A stretch of DNA of 64,000 nt from assembly GCA_951406725.2 (NCBI GenBank), contig OX597831.1, positions 55,924,001-55,988,000 on the forward strand, written 5' to 3'. This DNA comes from Octopus vulgaris (lineage: Eukaryota). Shown here in pieces: positions 4,899-61,951 of this stretch (its first letter is position 1; the number at the start of each line of letters is the position of its first letter). The translations under genes were made by a program, and so were the position numbers. Under the pieces are notes generated by a model. It made no database searches. It was not told where the DNA came from and saw only the letters and a list, made by a program, of their open reading frames with translations.

Positions 4899-6056
4899 AG
4901 TAAATTGGGAGAATGGCTTCATGACTTTCTGAAGGATAGAAGTCAGGGGCCACTTCCATTAACACGCAAATAGTGAGCGGTGTTCCGCAAGGCACTGTTT
5001 TGGGACCACTACTGTTCATAATGGCCCTCTCAGACATGCCCTCAGCCACGCAGAGAGCCACGATCACAACTTATGCAGATGATACAAAAGTTTCACAGGC
5101 AATACAGAACCCTGAAGACACTATGCACCTGCAATGTGAGCTGGACAAAATATACAAGTGGGCTGAAAAGAATAGCATGCAGTTCAATGCTGAAAAGTTT
5201 CAAGCTTTATGCTATCAGCATGCAAAACTAAATGCAATACCCAATAAATACACTGGACCTGGAGGGATTGCAATCCCAGAGGCACAATCAGTGCGAGACC
5301 TGGGTATTTACATGAGTGATGATGCAACCTTTCATGTGCATGTTGCTAAATTGGCAATGAAATGTAGGCGGCTGACCGGATGGATTCTTAGAACCTTTAG
5401 AACAAGAGAACAAGAAACCATGATGGTCCTCTAGGACACTTGTCCTAAGCCACTTTGACTATTGCTCTTAGCTATGGTCACCATACAGTGTCAAGTTAAT
5501 CACAGAACTTGAGACGATCCAACGAAGCTACATGAAGAAGATAGCCTCTGTGCAGCATATAAGCTATTGGGAAAGACTCAAGAGATTGAGACTCTATTCC
5601 TTAGAGCGTAGGCGAGAAAGATATGTCATAATATACATCTGGAAGATCCTAGAAGGACTTGTCCCAAACTTTGGCATCGAGAGTTACACAAATGCCAGAA
5701 CTGGGCGCCACTGCATAGTGCCAAGGACTCCAAATTTGCCATCAAGATGTAGGACAAGATACTGCGATAGCCTGGGCTTCCGAGGCCCACAGCTCTTCAA
5801 TATCCTCCCGAAGAATCTAAGAGACCTGCATGGGGTGGATGCAGATGTCTTTAAAATAAAACTGGATCTTTTCTTGTCAGGTGTCCCAGATGAACCAACT
5901 TCACGGCAGGAGGTGCAGATGAGGGCAGCTGCATCGAACTCTCTCATGCACCAAATGGCAATTGCTAAAAAGCATTCGTGAAGTAAAATCATGTAGCAAC
6001 ACCAAATGGCGGTGCCCCAGCATGGCCACAGCTTGTGAGCTGAAACTAGATAAAAA
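4897..6056 (+). mobile_element. 5'-truncated CR1/L2-group LINE (RT and C-terminal part, inactivated) inside (AT)n
   Basis: [52 protein letters not shown]. Premature stops near 5432-5470. 3' stem-loop tail GGCGGTGCCCCAGCATGGCCACAGCTTGTGAGCTGAAAC. Confidence 0.92.
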
Positions 6057-11778: not shown

Positions 11779-13190
11779 CAAGGTGCATTCCAGAAGTTTT
11801 TAAACTTTTTTAAAGGAGATATTTATTTAACTTCAATGAAGTACTAAACCCTGATCTCTTTCAAAATAAGACCCTCCAACTTCAATGCACTAGTTGCAGC
11901 GCTCCAGTCACTTCATGAAAACCCCATATAAATCTCCCAAAGTGAAGGTGTTCAGGACCCTCGTCACAGCCTCCACCATCGTCAAAACGATCGCCTCTGA
12001 AGTTCTCCTTCAAATTGAGGAACAACAATAGGTCACAAGGAGCAAGGTCTGGACTGTAGGAAGGGAGAGGAACAGTTTTGATATCCATTCTTGTCAAATA
12101 GTTAGTTACCGGAATGGAATTGTGAACTGGTGCATTGTCCTGGTGCAGGTGTTCTGAACTTTTGCGTCGAAATCTCTTCATTTTTTTTTTCATTTTTATT
12201 TTCATCTAGTTTCAGCTCACGAGCAGTGGCCATGCAGGGACACCACCATTCGGTGTTGCTACGTGATTTTACTTCACGAATGCTTTTTAGCAATTGACAT
12301 TTGGTGCATGAGAGAGTTTGATGCAGCTGCCCTCATCTGCACCTCCTGCCGTGAAGTTGGTTCATCTGGGACACTTGACAGGAAGAGATCCAGCTTTATT
12401 TTAAAGACATCCGCATCCACCCCATGCAGGTCTCTCAGGTCCTTCGGGAGGATATTGAAGAGCTGTGGACCTCTGAAGCCCAGGCTATCACAGTATCTTG
12501 CCCTACATCTTGATTGCAAATTTGGAGTCCTTGGCACTATGCAGTGGCGCCCAGTTCTAGTATTTGTGTAGCTCTCGATGCCAAAGTTTGGGACAAGTCC
12601 TTCCAGGATCTTCCAGATGTATATTATGGCATATCTTTCTCGCCTACGCTCTAAGGAATAGAGTCTTAATCTCTTGAGTCTTTCCCAATAGCTTATATGC
12701 TGCATAGCGGTTACCTTCGTGTAGCTTCGTTGGATTGCCTCAAGTTCTGTGATTAATTTGACACTGGCTGGTGACCATAGCTGAGAGCAATAGTCAAAGT
12801 GGCTTAGGACAAGTGTCCTCCAGAGGACCATCATGGTTTCCTGGTCTCTTGTTCAAAAAGCTCTAAGAATCCAAACTAAATTCCTGAACTAAATTCAAGA
12901 CTTCCGCTAAGTACTCATTGTTGACCATACGTCTAGAAAGAATCCAGCGGATATAGATGGTGCCGTTGCTGACGAGGAAGGGTTTTATCATGAACTTCCC
13001 AGTGAACTTTATTTTCCCGGACTCTTCTACTAGAGAAAAAACATGCTAACCTCATAAAATTTATCAATGAAAAGTCTCGAGCATTTCATGAGTTTCTGTA
13101 GCGATTTTTGCCCCAACACAAAACTTTATTGCATTAAGACTTCCCAAATTATTTCACGTCTCGACTGCATTCTGCAAACTAGTCACCTTT
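11779..13190 (-). mobile_element. Degenerate mariner (DD34D) transposon interrupted by a LINE
   Basis: HQDNAPVH...YSPDLAPCD at about 12030-12150. The upstream part (GTIYIRW..MVNNEYLAEVL) resumes after 12876. The end CAAGGTGCATTCCAGAAGTTTT recurs at 48764. Confidence 0.85.
12185..12875 (-). mobile_element. 5'-truncated CR1/L2-group LINE, same family as 4897-6056
   Basis: ORF 12274-12834 is near-identical to the translation of about 5420-5981 and has the same 3' tail. Confidence 0.92.
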
Positions 13191-14195: not shown

Positions 14196-14625
14196 AGAAG
14201 AAATGAAACTCGTCAATAAGACATTTTAACAGAAAATGATGGATATGTATAGTTATTTACTGAACGCTATTAATATTGTTTGAAAAAACGTTATATGATA
14301 TAACATCAGAAGTAGCCTATAGAAAGAGGAGGGATATATTTTTAGTGAATGTTAAATATATATGTATATATATGTATATATGTATATATATATATGTATA
14401 TATATGTATATATATATATATATATATAGCAATAATAATTCTCTAAATGAGATATAGACAGTAACTGCTCCATAACATAAGGGACTAAAGCCATCTGAAT
14501 ATGGCTAGGGACAGGGCAGGGTGGTGTTACTGTTGCATTTAGCCCCAGGCGAACATCAACGTCGCCAGATAGGCTTGACACCATCACGGCGTCCTCTATC
14601 CTGCAAAGGGAGATAATTCCCCGAT

Positions 14626-14698
14626 GAAGCGGAAACCACACACGGACCTAGGTTTCAAGGTGTTTGCCTATTATCAACGTATGGTAGGCACCCGCTTC
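14626..14698 (-). ncRNA. Type I hammerhead, U3-A8 variant, extended stem I
   Basis: Reverse complement of 15182-15254. Confidence 0.82.
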
Positions 14699-15181
14699 CT
14701 CGATGAATCACTCACTCTGCAGGATATTTATATAGATTTTCAAGCAAAATACATTTGCTGATTTCGAAAATCTGTTCGACAGCAATAATAATTCTCTAAA
14801 TGAGATATAGACAGTAACTGCTCCATAACATAAGGGACTAAAGCCATCTGAATATGGCTAGGGACAGGGCAGGGTGGTGGGGGTGTTACCGCTTCATCGG
14901 GGAATTATCTCCCTTTGCAGGATAGAGGACGCCGTGATGGTGTCAAGCCTATCTGGCGACGTTGATGTTCGCCTGGGGCTAAACACAACAGTAACACCCC
15001 CACCACCCTGCCCTGTCCCTAGCCATATTCAGATGGCTTTAGTCCCTTATGTTATGGAGCAGTTACTGTCTATATCTCATTTAGAGAATTATTATTGCTG
15101 TCGAACAGATTTTCGAAATCAGCAAATGTATTTTGCTTGAAAATCTATATAAATATCCTGCAGAGTTAGTGGTTCGTCGAG

Positions 15182-15254
15182 GAAGCGGGTGCCTACCATA
15201 CGTTGATAATAGGCAAACACCTTGAAACCTAGGTCCGTGTGTGGTTTCCGCTTC
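15182..15254 (+). ncRNA. Type I hammerhead, U3-A8 variant, extended stem I
   Basis: GAAGCGG..CATACG-TTGATAA-tAGG caaaca CCTt-GAA-ACCTAGGT-C-CGTGTG..CCGCTTC. Predicted cleavage after 15235 (GUC). Confidence 0.82.
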
Positions 15255-15409
15255 ATCGGGGAATTATCTCTCTTTGCAGGATAGAGGACGCCGTGATGGT
15301 GTCAAGCCTATCTGGCGACGTTGATGTTCGCCTGGGGCTAAATGCAACAGTAACACCACCCTGCCCTGTCCCTAGCCATATTCAGATGGCTTTAGTCCCT
15401 TATGCAGTC

Positions 15410-39066: not shown

Positions 39067-40104
39067 GTCAAATGTATTACCTCTCTTTAATTTTCTATGT
39101 TGGAAAATCCTGATTGAAATGACGTCATAATAGGACACATTTTCACAAATTTTATGAAATGTCTTGTTTCACAAAATCATTGAACAGGCATGGATGGAGA
39201 GAGAAATAAAAATTTGAACGAATCGTCTGAGCGTCGGACAAAATGCCCTATGGTATTTGTTCTATTTGTGTATGTGTTTTATGAGTTCAAATTCCGCCGA
39301 GGTCAACTTTACCTTTTAATTTACCAACTTCGGTAACATAAAACTACTATTTAAGTACAAGAGTTGATATAATCGATCATTCTCCGTCTCGCTTCAAATT
39401 TCTGACCTTATGTTTATGTCAGAAATTGTTGAAGTCGCTCCGATTGATTTTATTAAAAAGTACTGTTGGTACGATAAAATAGTGAGATATTTGAAATATG
39501 GTTACTATAGTATAGTTATTATAGTTTGAACTTATTAGTATCTGGATTAAGGCCATATCTTATTTGATTCTATATTTCTATACGTTCATTCTATACTTGG
39601 AAAATTCTTCTATTTGTAGTGATTAAATTCTCCCATCGGCTGCCAAGTAAAGGTAAGAATATTATTGTTATTGTTTTTGTTGTTTCAGTGAAAGCACTAC
39701 TAATGGTGATGACAGTGGTGGTGGAAATAGTGGTGGCTGCTATTGTTGATTTTTTAAATTATCCTCAGTCATCAGACTAGTGAAACAGTAAATAAAATTT
39801 TTACTGATGACCAGCAAGCACAACATTAAAACTACTGTCTCAAATAAAAGTCATTGGGCATTGTAGTCCATAACACTCAAAAAGACAATATGATCACGGT
39901 TAGAACGACTTTGATCGAGGGTCTACTTGATCAAGTCTGATCTGGAGCTAAACGGCATCATATAATGTTGACAGTCTCTAGGCTTTATAATCACACGTTC
40001 TAATAGTCCTCAACAAACGAATAGTTTTTGACTTCGATAGCATTCGAGATCGAAGTATAAAAAATTGAGAACTCCATAGGTTTTTTAAAGGCTACTGTGT
40101 ATAA

Positions 40105-40137
<33 letters not shown>

Positions 40138-40443
40138 CTAAACTGTACTGGGAGAAGAAGAAGAAACGAAACGAAACGGAACGAATCGAATCGAATCGAC
40201 GCGAAGGCGCTCAGTCATACAATAGTGTAATAAATAAAATATATGCATACATACATACATATATGTACGTACCTACATCTACATGTATATATACATGCAT
40301 ATATAAATATATATACGTGAGTACAGGACACCACAAATAGACGCAGAACTCAATGATAACGAAAACGTAAAAACAAGCATGGAACGAACCTTTTTTTTAC
40401 AAGGAAAAAACAGAGTACTAGACAAACTACACAAGGAAAAATT

Positions 40444-40503
40444 CCCCTTCATCAGCTGTCCCTAGTTCAACTCCAGCGTGTTTCGAAGGTGAGGACAGAA
40501 CAC

Positions 40504-40504
<1 letters not shown>
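40444..40504 (-). ncRNA. Non-circularly permuted hammerhead motif, version 2
   Basis: Minus strand CGTGT-T-CTGTCC-tca-CCTTC-GAA-ACACG-(15 nt)-GGACAG-CTGATGA-aGGGG. GUU triplet. Host is about 40318-40504 between (AT)n tracts. Confidence 0.78.
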
Positions 40505-40547
<43 letters not shown>

Positions 40548-55024: not shown

Positions 55025-56183
55025 TGACAGTTGATCGAATTTAGACTAGTGGACAGTTGATCGAATTTTAGCAAGTGGACAGTTGATCGAATTTACACCA
55101 GTGGACAATTGATCGAATTTGCACATGTAAACAGTTGATCAAGTTTACACCGGTGGACAGTTGATCGAATTTTCGCTAGTGGGCAATTGATTGAAATGCA
55201 AAAGTAGACAGTAGATCGAATTTACACAATTGCACAGTTGATCGAATTTACACCAGTGGACAATTGATCGAATTTTCGCTAGTGGACAGTTGATCGAATT
55301 TGCACAAGAAGACAATTGATCGAATTTTCCCTAGTGGACAATTGATCGAATTTACACCAGTGGGCAGTTGATAGAATTTGCGCTAGTTGACAGTTGATCG
55401 AATTTACACCAGTGGACAGTTGAACGAATGTTTGCTAGTGGACAGTTGATCGAATTTGCACAAGTAGACAGTTGAACGAATTTAGACCAGTAGACATTCA
55501 ATCGAATTTGTGCTAGTGGATACTAGATCGAATTTTCGCTAGTGGACAGTTAATCGAATTTACACAAGTAGACAGTTGAACGAATTTAGACTAGTGGACA
55601 GTCTATCGAATTTTCCCTAGTTGACAATTGATCGAAATACACAATTAGACAGTTGATCAAATTTACACCTGTGGACAGTTGATCGAATTTGCACCATTGG
55701 ATAGTTGATCGACGTTAGACCAGTGGACAGTTGATCGAATTTGCGCTAGCGGACAGTTAATCAAATTTCCACCAGTGGGCAGTTGATAGAATTTGAAAAA
55801 GTAGACAGTTGATCGAATTTACGCTATTAGTGGATCGACGTTAGACCAGTGGACAGTTGATCAAATTTTTGCTAGTGGACAGCTGACCGAATTTACACCA
55901 GCGGACGGTTGATCGAATTTTCGCTACTGCACAGTGGATCGAATTTGCACAAGAAGATAATTGATCAAACTTTCGCTATTGGACTGTTGATCGAATTTAC
56001 ACCAGAGTGCAGTTGATAGAATTTGCGCTAATGGACAGTTGATCGAATTTACACCAGTGGCCAGTTGAACGAATGTTTGCTAGTGGACAGTTGATCGAAT
56101 TTGCATAAGTAGACAGTTGAACGAATTTAGACCAGTGGAAGTCAATCGAATTTTCGCTAGTGGATAGTTGATCGAATTTAGAC
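55025..56183. repeat. Minisatellite, 22-23 bp unit, about 50 copies
   Basis: Consensus GTGGACAGTTGATCGAATTT plus a variable ACACCA/TCGCTA/GCACAA/AGACCA segment. Confidence 0.95.
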
Positions 56184-57442
56184 TTACCACACAGCCACAA
56201 ACTCCACACATCTTCTCAATAGAAAAGTTGCAGTAATACAACGACGATGATAAAATAAGATTTAAATCAGTAAAAACAATCACTACACATTTAAATGTAA
56301 ACAAACCACAAATACACAAAAGCCACTGACACGTACATCCGCAAACCATATACACGCATACATACACACTTACAAACCACAAACACACACACGTCTGAAT
56401 TAAATATGGACGCCAAAAAAAACAACAAAGCAGTAACGTCGACAAAACTGCAATACACAGAGAGAGGGAGAGGCTTGACAACAAATAAATGAACATAAAC
56501 ACATAAACAACATAAGCACAACAACATAAACACAAGAAAAAATCAGTTGGAGATTGGCAATAAACTATTCAACAGCAATAAAGAGGTAAATTAAACCAGT
56601 GCGTGTGTTTTTATTTTATTGGCCAAATGACCGTCCTAAAATTCAACTATATCATTTATAACACGCTTACATATAAAACATCTTGAAAAGCAAATGCATG
56701 ATCCCCTGTTTGGCAAGGTAAAAGGGTTGAATTTCTCTGGGTCAATTGTAGAATATACGAATATTGGAATGTAGTGATACTGAGATACTGAAATACAAGA
56801 TAAACTGAAAAGTAAACAGGATTTTTTGAAGTTGATGGGGGTAAAATCATGAAGCGGGTTAAGGAGCACAGTAGAAAAAGGGTTAGTGTTTGATCTGTGT
56901 GACCTTTGAAGAAAATAAGAAAAGTAAGGTAAGGTAGAAATTATAGAACTTACGATAAGAGTAAAAATTAGATGTTAGATTTTTAAAAAGAAACATGCGG
57001 TTTGAGAAAATTGTCTTAAATACAGAGTGTATCAATGTGGAGAGAAAAAAATGAAATAGAGAAAAATAAACAATGGGAAACAAATTCAAAGAGAAAAAAT
57101 TCCATCCTATGAGCTGGAAGTTTTAGAAATCTTGTGGGAAAATGAAAGAATCCAGAAAACGAAGTAATAATGGAACATTCTATTGCCGGCGCAGAAATTC
57201 CGCACAGTAGACACAAATATAAAAGTAGTACAAGAATGTAATGCATCGTTAATGACTACCAAACTTTGAATTATTTTAACCCTTTTACTTGGTTAAAACA
57301 TTTTCGTAAATTTGTCCTAAAAATGTCCCTGCTTGTTTTCAGGTTTTTAATCTGCTCTTGTTTCAAACATTCTGAAAATATAAACCTTTTCTTTTATATA
57401 TCCCAAGTAACACTGACGGTTGAAGAAAATTGGGAATGTATA

Positions 57443-60274: not shown

Positions 60275-60779
60275 ATAACCGCCAGACTTCGTATTCTGTC
60301 ATGCCCGGAGTCCAACTTTGATAGAAATAAGCATTCTTGACTGCTATTTCTATTTTTTCGGTATGCGGTCAAGCAACCTGTTTTGCCTGTCCCTTTTTCT
60401 TATATACAATATATACACTGAACTTTACAGAAGTTCCTGCCGGTAATCGGCTATATTTACATACCGAATTCTACCAGTAAATAATTGGGTTTTTTTTAAA
60501 AGCCTTTATAGAAATTATTTACTCTTATCATTATATTATATATATATATATATATATATATCATGGCGTTCAATCATATAATAATATAAATAATATATAC
60601 ATGCATATATACATACGTATACGTACATACTTACATGCATACGTATATACAAATGCATATGTGAGCACAGGACGCCACAAAAAATATACAACAAAAAATA
60701 CGAAGTACGATGACATGGAATAAGGGCTTTTTTACAAGCAACGAAAGAAGCAAATGGAAGACAAGACAAGCAACACAAG

Positions 60780-60847
60780 GAACGACCCTTCTTCAGTTGT
60801 CGGCTGTTTTTCTAATCCGTATTTCGAGCAATTCACGACAAGATACG
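60780..60847 (-). ncRNA. Non-circularly permuted hammerhead motif, version 3
   Basis: Minus strand CGTAT-C-TTGTCG-tgaatt-GCTC-GAA-ATACG-(15 nt)-CGACAA-CTGAAGA-aGGGT. AUC triplet. Confidence 0.8.
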
Positions 60848-61224
60848 CCTTCGATAAAACAGTTGCTCCCGCAAAGCAAATTAAATAAAATTTGCGATCT
60901 TGCAGAGGGTCAAGATTGGTGACAAAAACAGCACCGTGAAAACAAACAGGAAGGGCTGCTAAGCCTAAACGAGGTTGTGGTGGCGAACGCGAAGAAACAA
61001 GTCTGAACAGGAGACAAAGAACAATACGTCTTGCCTGTCCAGCTGAAACAGGAAGAAAGAAACCCAAGTTAGGAGAATAGCCGATGGTCACGTGGGGGCC
61101 ACGTGAGCAAAGGAGGAAGAGTGAGGGAGAGAGAGTGGCAGACAGAGAACTGTGAAGGAGAGAGGAAAATATGTGGAGACAGGATAAGAGACAAAAAGAG
61201 GGAGAGGGAGAGGGAGAAGGGGAG

Positions 61225-61550
61225 GTAAAAGAAAGGAAGAGAGAAAGCGAAAGAGCAAAAGGATAGAATAGTGGGAGAGGAGGAGGTAAAAGAATAAGAG
61301 AAAGGAAGAGAGAAAACGACAGAGTAAAAGGGTAGAATAGTGAGAGAGGAGGAGGTAAAAGAATAAGAGAAAGGAAGAGAGAAAACGACAGAGTAAAAGG
61401 ATAGAATAGTGGGAGAGGAGGAGGTAAAAGAATAAGAGAAAGGAAGAGAGAAAACGACAGAGTAAAAGGGTAGAATAGTGAGAGAGGAAGAGGTAAAAGA
61501 ATAAGAGAAAGGAAAGGAGAAAATGAAAGAGTAAAAGGATAGAATACTTG
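61225..61550. repeat. 69-bp purine-rich minisatellite with alternating variants
   Basis: Units start at 61262, 61331, 61400, 61469 and 61538, alternating GATAGAATAGTGGG and GGTAGAATAGTGAG. Confidence 0.9.
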
Positions 61551-61818
61551 GAGAAGAGAGAAAAAAACGAATGATAGAATGATACAAGAGTCGTATCGGA
61601 GTTAGGATAAAACTTACTTGGAAAAGGATGCGTGGCGTTCAATCATATAATAATAAAAATTATATATATATATGTATATATATATGCATATATACATACG
61701 AAGTACGAGGACATGGAATAAGGGACGTATGTATATATGCATATATATATGACCGCGTGTGTACCGTTGGCAATTTTTTTCCTCCGTCTTCCCTTCCTTG
61801 GATCTTTCCTTTTCCTAT

Positions 61819-61853
61819 GTTTCTGACGAAGAGCTCCGCTCGAAACGTTAAAT
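61819..61853 (+). ncRNA. Minimal hammerhead with canonical core (dimer-type stem III)
   Basis: GTTT-CTGACGA-aGAGC tcc GCTC-GAA-ACGT-T-AAAT in element 61751-61956, flanked by (AT)n. Confidence 0.78.
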
Positions 61854-61951
61854 CCTCCTTCTTTCTTTCCTTTCCCGAGCGTCCAATAACACTATACTTG
61901 TTCCACGTCCTCGCGTTGTTGTGTTTTCTCTTTGTGTTTTCATGTTTGGAT

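Follow-up and report, generated by a model that had tools for sequence, protein, structure and literature searches.

Do the hammerhead motifs at 40444-40504 of the window (the whole stretch of 64,000 nt from Octopus vulgaris contig OX597831.1 analysed here) belong to a ribozyme, and does a mobile element begin with them, as the initial annotation proposed? The host is an animal with a microsatellite-rich genome of 2.8 Gb. All segments that had been named were found on the minus strand, directly after a (TA)19 tract and in the non-circular order S-G-C (Table 1). Cleavage is predicted after U17, between 40499 and 40498, in agreement with the site proposed earlier. Judged by these letters, the wiring is that of a variant hammerhead, of which the window copy is a real, damaged member. 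Quite likely, the locus is a 5'-truncated copy of a non-coding Penelope-like element, which probably belongs to the Naiads. Complete copies of this element contain a predicted rewired hammerhead that the window copy itself would probably be unable to form. A wider reading, given a probability of roughly 0.6, attributes to Naiads, and to the non-coding elements derived from them, an active hammerhead outside the six hammerhead permutations: its core would be split at the A9-G10.1 link and reassembled around a four-way junction. This form would extend from corals to octopus, nematode Naiads would hold type-CSG hammerheads, and partial cutting would set the 5' ends of a share of insertions.

Table 1. 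Features of the F1 copy and of the F2 element in the window
Feature	Position	Strand	Basis or remark
5'-truncated copy, 366 nt, non-coding Penelope-like element, family F1	40139..40504	-	between two (TA)n tracts
(TA)n tract, 5' junction	40505..40542	.	(TA)19; motifs start directly after
Second (TA)n tract, 3' junction	40100-40137		likely target site
Block S: stem III 5' strand, GUU triplet, stem I strand	40493..40504	-	sequence; compensated across subfamilies
Segments of block S	CGUGU 40504-40500; U17 40499; CUGUCC 40498-40493	-	sequence
Block G: stem II 3' strand, GAAA, stem III 3' strand	40477..40489	-	upstream stem II partner absent from window copy
Segments of block G	CCUUC 40489-40485; GAA-ACACG 40484-40477	-	sequence
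Helix P0, 3' strand	40462..40471	-	upstream partner absent here; 10-bp helix in complete copies
Stem I strand, CUGAUGA, helix A 3' strand	40444..40461	-	partner of helix A strand absent here
Segments of the preceding feature	GGACAG 40461-40456; CUGAUGA 40455-40449; AGGGG 40448-40444	-	sequence
Internal motif common to the 60.7-kb element, not a terminus	40318..40338	-	family alignments
Whole F2 element, partial tandem	60563..61724	-	ends approximate
Complete F2 ribozyme	60784..60911	-	passes six-helix descriptor (L031)
F2 ribozyme, 5' part	A 60911-60906; hairpin B 60905-60869; stem II 60868-60863; P0 60862-60856	-	
F2 ribozyme, middle	stem III 60847-60843; C17 60842; stem I 60841-60836; stem II 3' strand 60831-60826	-	
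F2 ribozyme, 3' part	GAAA from 60825; P0 3' strand 60810-60804; stem I strand 60802-60797	-	
F2 ribozyme, end	CUGAAGA 60796-60790; A 3' strand 60789-60784	-	

The window copy and its element families

The element had been described as starting at the ribozyme and ending at 40318, and neither boundary held. Upstream continuation of at least 19 nt beyond the ribozyme was seen by eye in 28 of the 29 other best copies fetched, the full unit of family F1 measures ~810 nt, and 40504-40139 matched its positions 451-808 at 96 %. The window copy, which starts six nt upstream of the predicted cut (at -6), is thus 5'-truncated and does not mark the element start. Since the F1 match extends to 40139, the motif at 40318 lies 179 nt inside the copy; the element at 60.7 kb also runs ~100 nt beyond its own motif at 60661. 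These two 21-nt motifs do match, as had been noticed (17 of 21 positions in the family-to-family alignment of F1 and F2), and neither of them is a terminus.

The F1 unit is non-coding, and its longer copies displayed partial tandems, inverted 5' pieces and (TA)n flanks. This is a Naiad-like layout, and the same three features are described for Penelope-like elements in the accessible part of PMC8557442. A search with 40318-40510 returned 2,455 first-look candidates, of which the 40 scored were 95-97 % identical over the query length. As a rough pattern, F1 copies stopped at one of two sites further on (17 and 13 of 30). Parts of the F1 unit are also represented in four contig runs, presumed to be RNA, which carry no information on ends or expression.

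The element at 60.7 kb represents family F2, which displayed 4,152 candidates in the genome and 87-93 % identity among the 40 scored. It is composed of a truncated upstream repeat of its 3' part (~61724-61606), an interior with an expanded 69-bp repeat, the ribozyme and a tail. The proposed relationship between the two hosts was supported by alignment of F1 and F2 throughout. Their interiors have diverged as stated (52-67 % by segment, leaving out a 74 % figure for 'downstream' that covers 23 columns only), yet remain alignable along their length. Ribozyme and terminal motif had been regarded as the constrained parts. Core and pairing are indeed kept; the motif, however, is not terminal, and in primary sequence the ribozyme region (59 % between F1 and F2) was no more conserved than its flanks (52-67 %). 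Within F1 (47 copies), 2.3 % of cells differed at the 14 core positions, 4.1 % in the rest of the RNA and 4.8 % in the flanks.

Another repeat adjoining the F2 element harbors, at 61817-61853 on the plus strand, an ordinary type I minimal hammerhead with CUGACGA, one extra A, a 4-bp stem II and a 2-bp stem III, which Rfam did not report.

Genome-wide, the G+C block pattern gave 4,907 exact matches against three for its backwards control, so the motif is not due to chance. A variant with another base after the core matched 1,251 times (control: 34), bringing exact core matches to ~6,100 (controls: 37). Forty unselected 10-kb stretches (400 kb) contained no motif, fewer than one being expected from the pattern counts. 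No hammerhead family was present among the 17 Rfam matches at E up to 10 in 60700-61950, nor among the 150 of 263 matches listed for the whole window, which consisted of microsatellite noise only; nested Rfam models are not expected to detect the S-G-C order.

Strand order and pairing in complete copies

In complete copies, the first half of the RNA consists successively of A, hairpin B, the stem II 5' strand, P0, stem III, the cut site and stem I, and the second half of the stem II 3' strand, GAAA, stem III', P0', stem I', CUGAnGA and A'. Both the strand before GAAA and the strand after CUGAUGA find their partners upstream, the partner of the latter being the more distant one, with hairpin B between the two partner strands. 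Helix P0 is formed by the strand that follows stem II and the one that precedes stem I', and measures 5-10 bp in most complete copies. As read from the letters, A9 is followed by helix A and not by stem II, G10.1 being supplied by the upstream strand; in strand order, the RNA is circularly permuted relative to the SGC/CSG circle, with the opening at the A9-G10.1 link and with A and B clamping the open ends. Helices A, B and II probably meet with the core G-A pairs as a four-way junction, in which no unpaired base separates A, B and II. The window copy retains the core letters but lacks four 5' strands (those of helices A, B, II and P0), and its P0 helix is absent; it likely cannot form the complete fold and is probably inactive.

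Majority sequences were built for nine subfamilies, of which F3, represented mostly by truncated copies, was left out. Over the eight counted (about three related groups; cells overstate independent changes), upstream stem II was Watson-Crick in 39 of the 40 cells that its first five pairs provide, with two-sided changes in four of six columns. The stem II of the initial annotation, which relied on G-U pairs, displayed 16 Watson-Crick cells, 16 G-U cells and eight mismatches, with two-sided changes in none of six columns, and the upstream duplex was the more stable in all eight subfamilies. The G-U stem is therefore not a conserved pairing, and the weak helix of the window copy is explained by loss of the true partner strand through 5' truncation. 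Upstream stem II reads GAAGG/CCUUC in F1, GAGCA/UGCUC in F2 and GACAC/GUGUC in the Naiad type, and the first pair of helix A varies among families (U-A, G-C, A-U). Changes on both sides were also encountered in helices B, I and III; complementarity of stems I and III proved to be compensated in the consensus, with two-sided changes in 4/6 and 4/5 columns, respectively.

The core itself was kept: CUGAnGA and GAAA were present in all eight subfamilies, together with the A15.1-U16.1 pair and an NUH triplet (GUU in the window copy), and N17 was U, C or A, never G. In seven of the eight, G10.1-C11.1 closed stem II, with the G coming from the upstream strand in complete copies. For the P0 3' strand, pairing with a strand further downstream was discarded: variation within F1 was not compensated there, and the upstream partner co-varied instead. 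A six-helix descriptor that allows no unpaired base between A, B and II found 44 distinct matches in the fetched loci; most of these loci had been selected by the motif itself. When the 1.22 Mb were read backwards, there was no match. Nested folding programs returned A, B, P0 and III, stems I and II being beyond their reach (z -0.75 and -1.92). Loci L289, L290, L291, L294, L295 and L296 belong to older decayed families, seemingly with the same wiring and other helix letters.

The S-G-C order, which circular permutation of the usual order does not yield, was named type SGC by Eckert et al. (2023, PMC10085705), and the term was encountered in no other paper. As far as the available text goes, the six permutations assume that CUGAnGA is directly joined to the stem II strand, SGC-3 needs a stem I-II interaction helix for activity, type CSG is known from two metagenome sequences, and type-SGC and type-CSG RNAs are not reported from the genomes of known organisms save for one weak bacterial candidate (PMC10085705). 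The octopus RNA resembles both types in its non-circular strand order, short stem I-II linker and core nucleotides, and P0 corresponds to the helix that connects their stems I and II at the far ends. It differs from type SGC in its broken block C, CUGAnGA leading into helix A and not into the stem II strand, and in that this strand and the partner of the I-II helix lie upstream instead of downstream, with A and B adding a junction. Furthermore, the type-SGC examples in the accessible part of PMC10085705 are from no known organism, whereas the octopus RNA exists in thousands of genome copies. According to the same pages, no known hammerhead has more than one to two nt between CUGAnGA and its stems (PMC10085705), so that activity of a core split there would be without precedent in that literature. 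Searches for which most subscription journals lay outside the scope yielded no description of this fold and no paper on insertions between A9 and G10.1. An extra A is known from a viroid hammerhead.

It seems very unlikely that the RNA acts as an ordinary type-SGC hammerhead through the weak G-U stem II, in which case helix A and the upstream stem II would be an off-switch that hides both strands. The block order and the short stem I-II linker agree with type SGC as described in the available text of PMC10085705, F1, F2 and F4 allow a G-U-rich helix of 4 bp if one extra A is admitted, and read-through of most copies (see below) is compatible with an off state. The G-U helix, however, displayed no two-sided change in its six columns, shrinks in the Naiad-type family to 2 bp (+0.9 kcal/mol), and is not possible in the visible parts of the coral sequences, while the G-C pair adjoining GAAA is kept in the upstream helix in 7/8 subfamilies. 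In addition, the I-II helix that SGC-3 requires, according to the accessible text of PMC10085705, here has an upstream partner.

Breakpoints behind the predicted cut

Element ends were compared with the predicted cut, with a divided outcome: 5' ends were in excess at +0 to +26, but they were spread and most copies read through. For F1, 90 stretches taken from the first 100 listed of 138 copies, with an anchor 112 nt downstream, provided 92 distinct 5' junctions (96 rows before removal of repeats). Breakpoints numbered 16 at +0 to +26 (1,880 nt at risk), 16 downstream (7,037 nt) and 16 upstream (6,716 nt). This corresponds to 8.5 per 1,000 nt at risk against 2.3 and 2.4, respectively (rate ratio 3.66, p 9.5e-5, or 0.031 with a scan correction allowing any 27-nt interval). 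For F2, where 30 of 35 anchored copies were used and the 27-nt interval was fixed beforehand, the counts were eight in 584, six in 2,281 and four in 1,695 nt, i.e. rates of 13.7, 2.6 and 2.4 (ratio 5.45, p 0.001). Just upstream of the predicted cut, at -53 to -1, F1 displayed six breakpoints in 3,025 nt, which is background; an earlier count by eye in 100 listed copies had given seven ends there and 26 at +0 to +26. Breakpoints were spread from +1 to +23 without a peak at 0, and 62 of 79 rows read through the predicted cut. In a single F1 copy (L219, C9:92528640-92529940), a deletion extends exactly from the predicted cut to the end of CUGAUGA.

In the proposed mechanism, A, B, P0 and III of the complete RNA would fold as nested helices, and the stem III loop would dock so as to form stems I and II. 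Part of the transcripts would be cut after N17, within one repeat or between two. We infer that some templates for reverse transcription owe their 5' end to this cut, and their copies would end just behind the site. The breakpoint excess would then be a genomic read-out of the role of hammerheads in Penelope-type retrotransposition.

With cutting being a prediction and the breakpoints spread, the RNA might instead be a hammerhead-derived structure that no longer cuts and provides the reverse transcriptase (RT) of the element with a signal for folding or protein binding, the excess originating from stalling at structure. This is hardly probable: CUGAnGA, GAAA, U16.1-A15.1 and a non-G N17 persist through the turnover of all helices, and the excess begins at the predicted cut, with background right upstream despite the strong helices found there.

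The same wiring could also act between two copies: the A/B/II junction and CUGAnGA would belong to one repeat, and the stem III hairpin loop docking there, with the cut site and GAAA, to the preceding repeat or to another molecule. Partial tandems and read-through of most copies would suit such an arrangement, and folding within one molecule needs a closed ring of core, II, P0 and III; in the visible Acropora sequences stem III reaches up to 13 bp and leads straight into P0, which makes it hard to bend. Dimer cleavage by a Penelope-type hammerhead is moreover the title of a paper cited in the accessible part of PMC10085705. On the other hand, type-SGC and type-CSG RNAs, each with one P0-III link, are cut almost fully during transcription as far as the available text of PMC10085705 goes, and all eight octopus-type subfamilies possess P0-III linkers of 3-8 nt on at least one strand. 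Action between two copies is judged rather unlikely.

Relation to Naiads and other Penelope-like elements

No canonical hammerhead is reported for Naiads in the accessible part of Craig et al. (2021, PMC8557442), where eight of them are marked HHR_half_core. Nevertheless, 19 of 30 octopus loci picked solely by a Naiad-type RT fragment displayed the same RNA downstream on the same strand, at 435-1,327 nt, against none of the 40 unselected 10-kb stretches; it was also present in eight of 20 more distant RT loci. This related Naiad-type (N) family sits behind broken RT ends, and its fold is the same and its B loop similar to those of F1 and F2.

The consensus 3' ends of Naiad_Obim and Naiad_Ovul, as visible in PMC8557442, showed the six helices by eye, unscored; their sequence is common in the source genome and by eye matches one family there. 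The same wiring with other letters was recognized by eye in three Acropora Naiads and in two further entries (PMC8557442 supplement, parts 12 and 19), which from the file order are probably Morbakka and an arthropod family. In these coral and further entries, the strand after CUGAUGA appeared by eye unable to pair with the strand before GAAA. The supplement readings cover snippets of about a dozen of the 54 families, inspected by eye, and other snippets were unfit or unclear. Among the nematode sequences of file S5 (parts 13-16), five Naiad entries appeared by eye to contain plain type-CSG hammerheads. Two further Naiad entries (file S5, parts 25-26) possess a common conserved stretch around GAAAC that, in the snippets available, fits neither wiring.

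F1 and F2 share (TA)n targets, partial tandems and 5' inversions with Naiads as described in the available text of PMC8557442; unlike Naiads, they are non-coding, and Naiads are reported there without a canonical hammerhead. No open reading frame with an N-terminal GIY-YIG nuclease and a C-terminal RT was found in the F1 and F2 units. An RT-bearing copy with an F1-type end was not encountered among 50 RT loci (F1 being queried directly on 20 only), so that the assignment of F1 to the Naiad group, which is likely, rests on fold, layout and target. Naiad copies encountered in this genome are old and broken, none being an intact or young partner for F1 or F2, whereas F1 copies are 95-97 % alike; one search for longer relatives of the RT fragment returned none, which is weak evidence.

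An active Penelope-like family with a C-terminal nuclease, found beside locus L008 and containing 775-aa frames, was considered as mobilizing partner and set aside; by eye, its 3' region did not resemble the F1 end, and its sense strand displayed no CUGAnGA there. This family (L008:15-713 minus, P0001; L161-L190) is very young and has a C-terminal GIY-YIG-like end; its 150 scored copies were 98-100 % identical, many of them with 775-aa open frames, and its 3' region includes a hammerhead-like stretch with CCGAAGA in place of CUGAnGA.

The hammerheads of Penelope-like elements and of animal non-LTR retrozymes are presumably of type I. The octopus elements resemble such Penelope-like and non-LTR retrozymes, as presented in the accessible part of bioRxiv 10.64898/2026.07.22.740005, in a hammerhead placed in the repeated end, a non-autonomous nature and a presumed dependence on a Penelope-like partner; their RNA, in contrast to the ordinary three-way junctions there, is permuted and pseudoknotted.

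If the wider reading is correct, non-circularly permuted hammerheads would move from unidentified environmental RNA into abundant animal retrotransposons. It would also explain the apparent absence of hammerheads in Naiads as opposed to other Penelope-like elements, and the best-studied ribozyme core would prove breakable at a link assumed to be fixed.

Elsewhere in the window, two non-LTR retrotransposon RT fragments lie in opposite orientation (4940-5978 on the plus strand and 12277-12852 on the minus strand). An inverted repeat of 414 nt at 14476-15404 is 99 % complementary around a 101-nt spacer, and 55026-56184 is occupied by a tandem array of ~45 copies of a 26-bp unit with an internal GATCGA motif.
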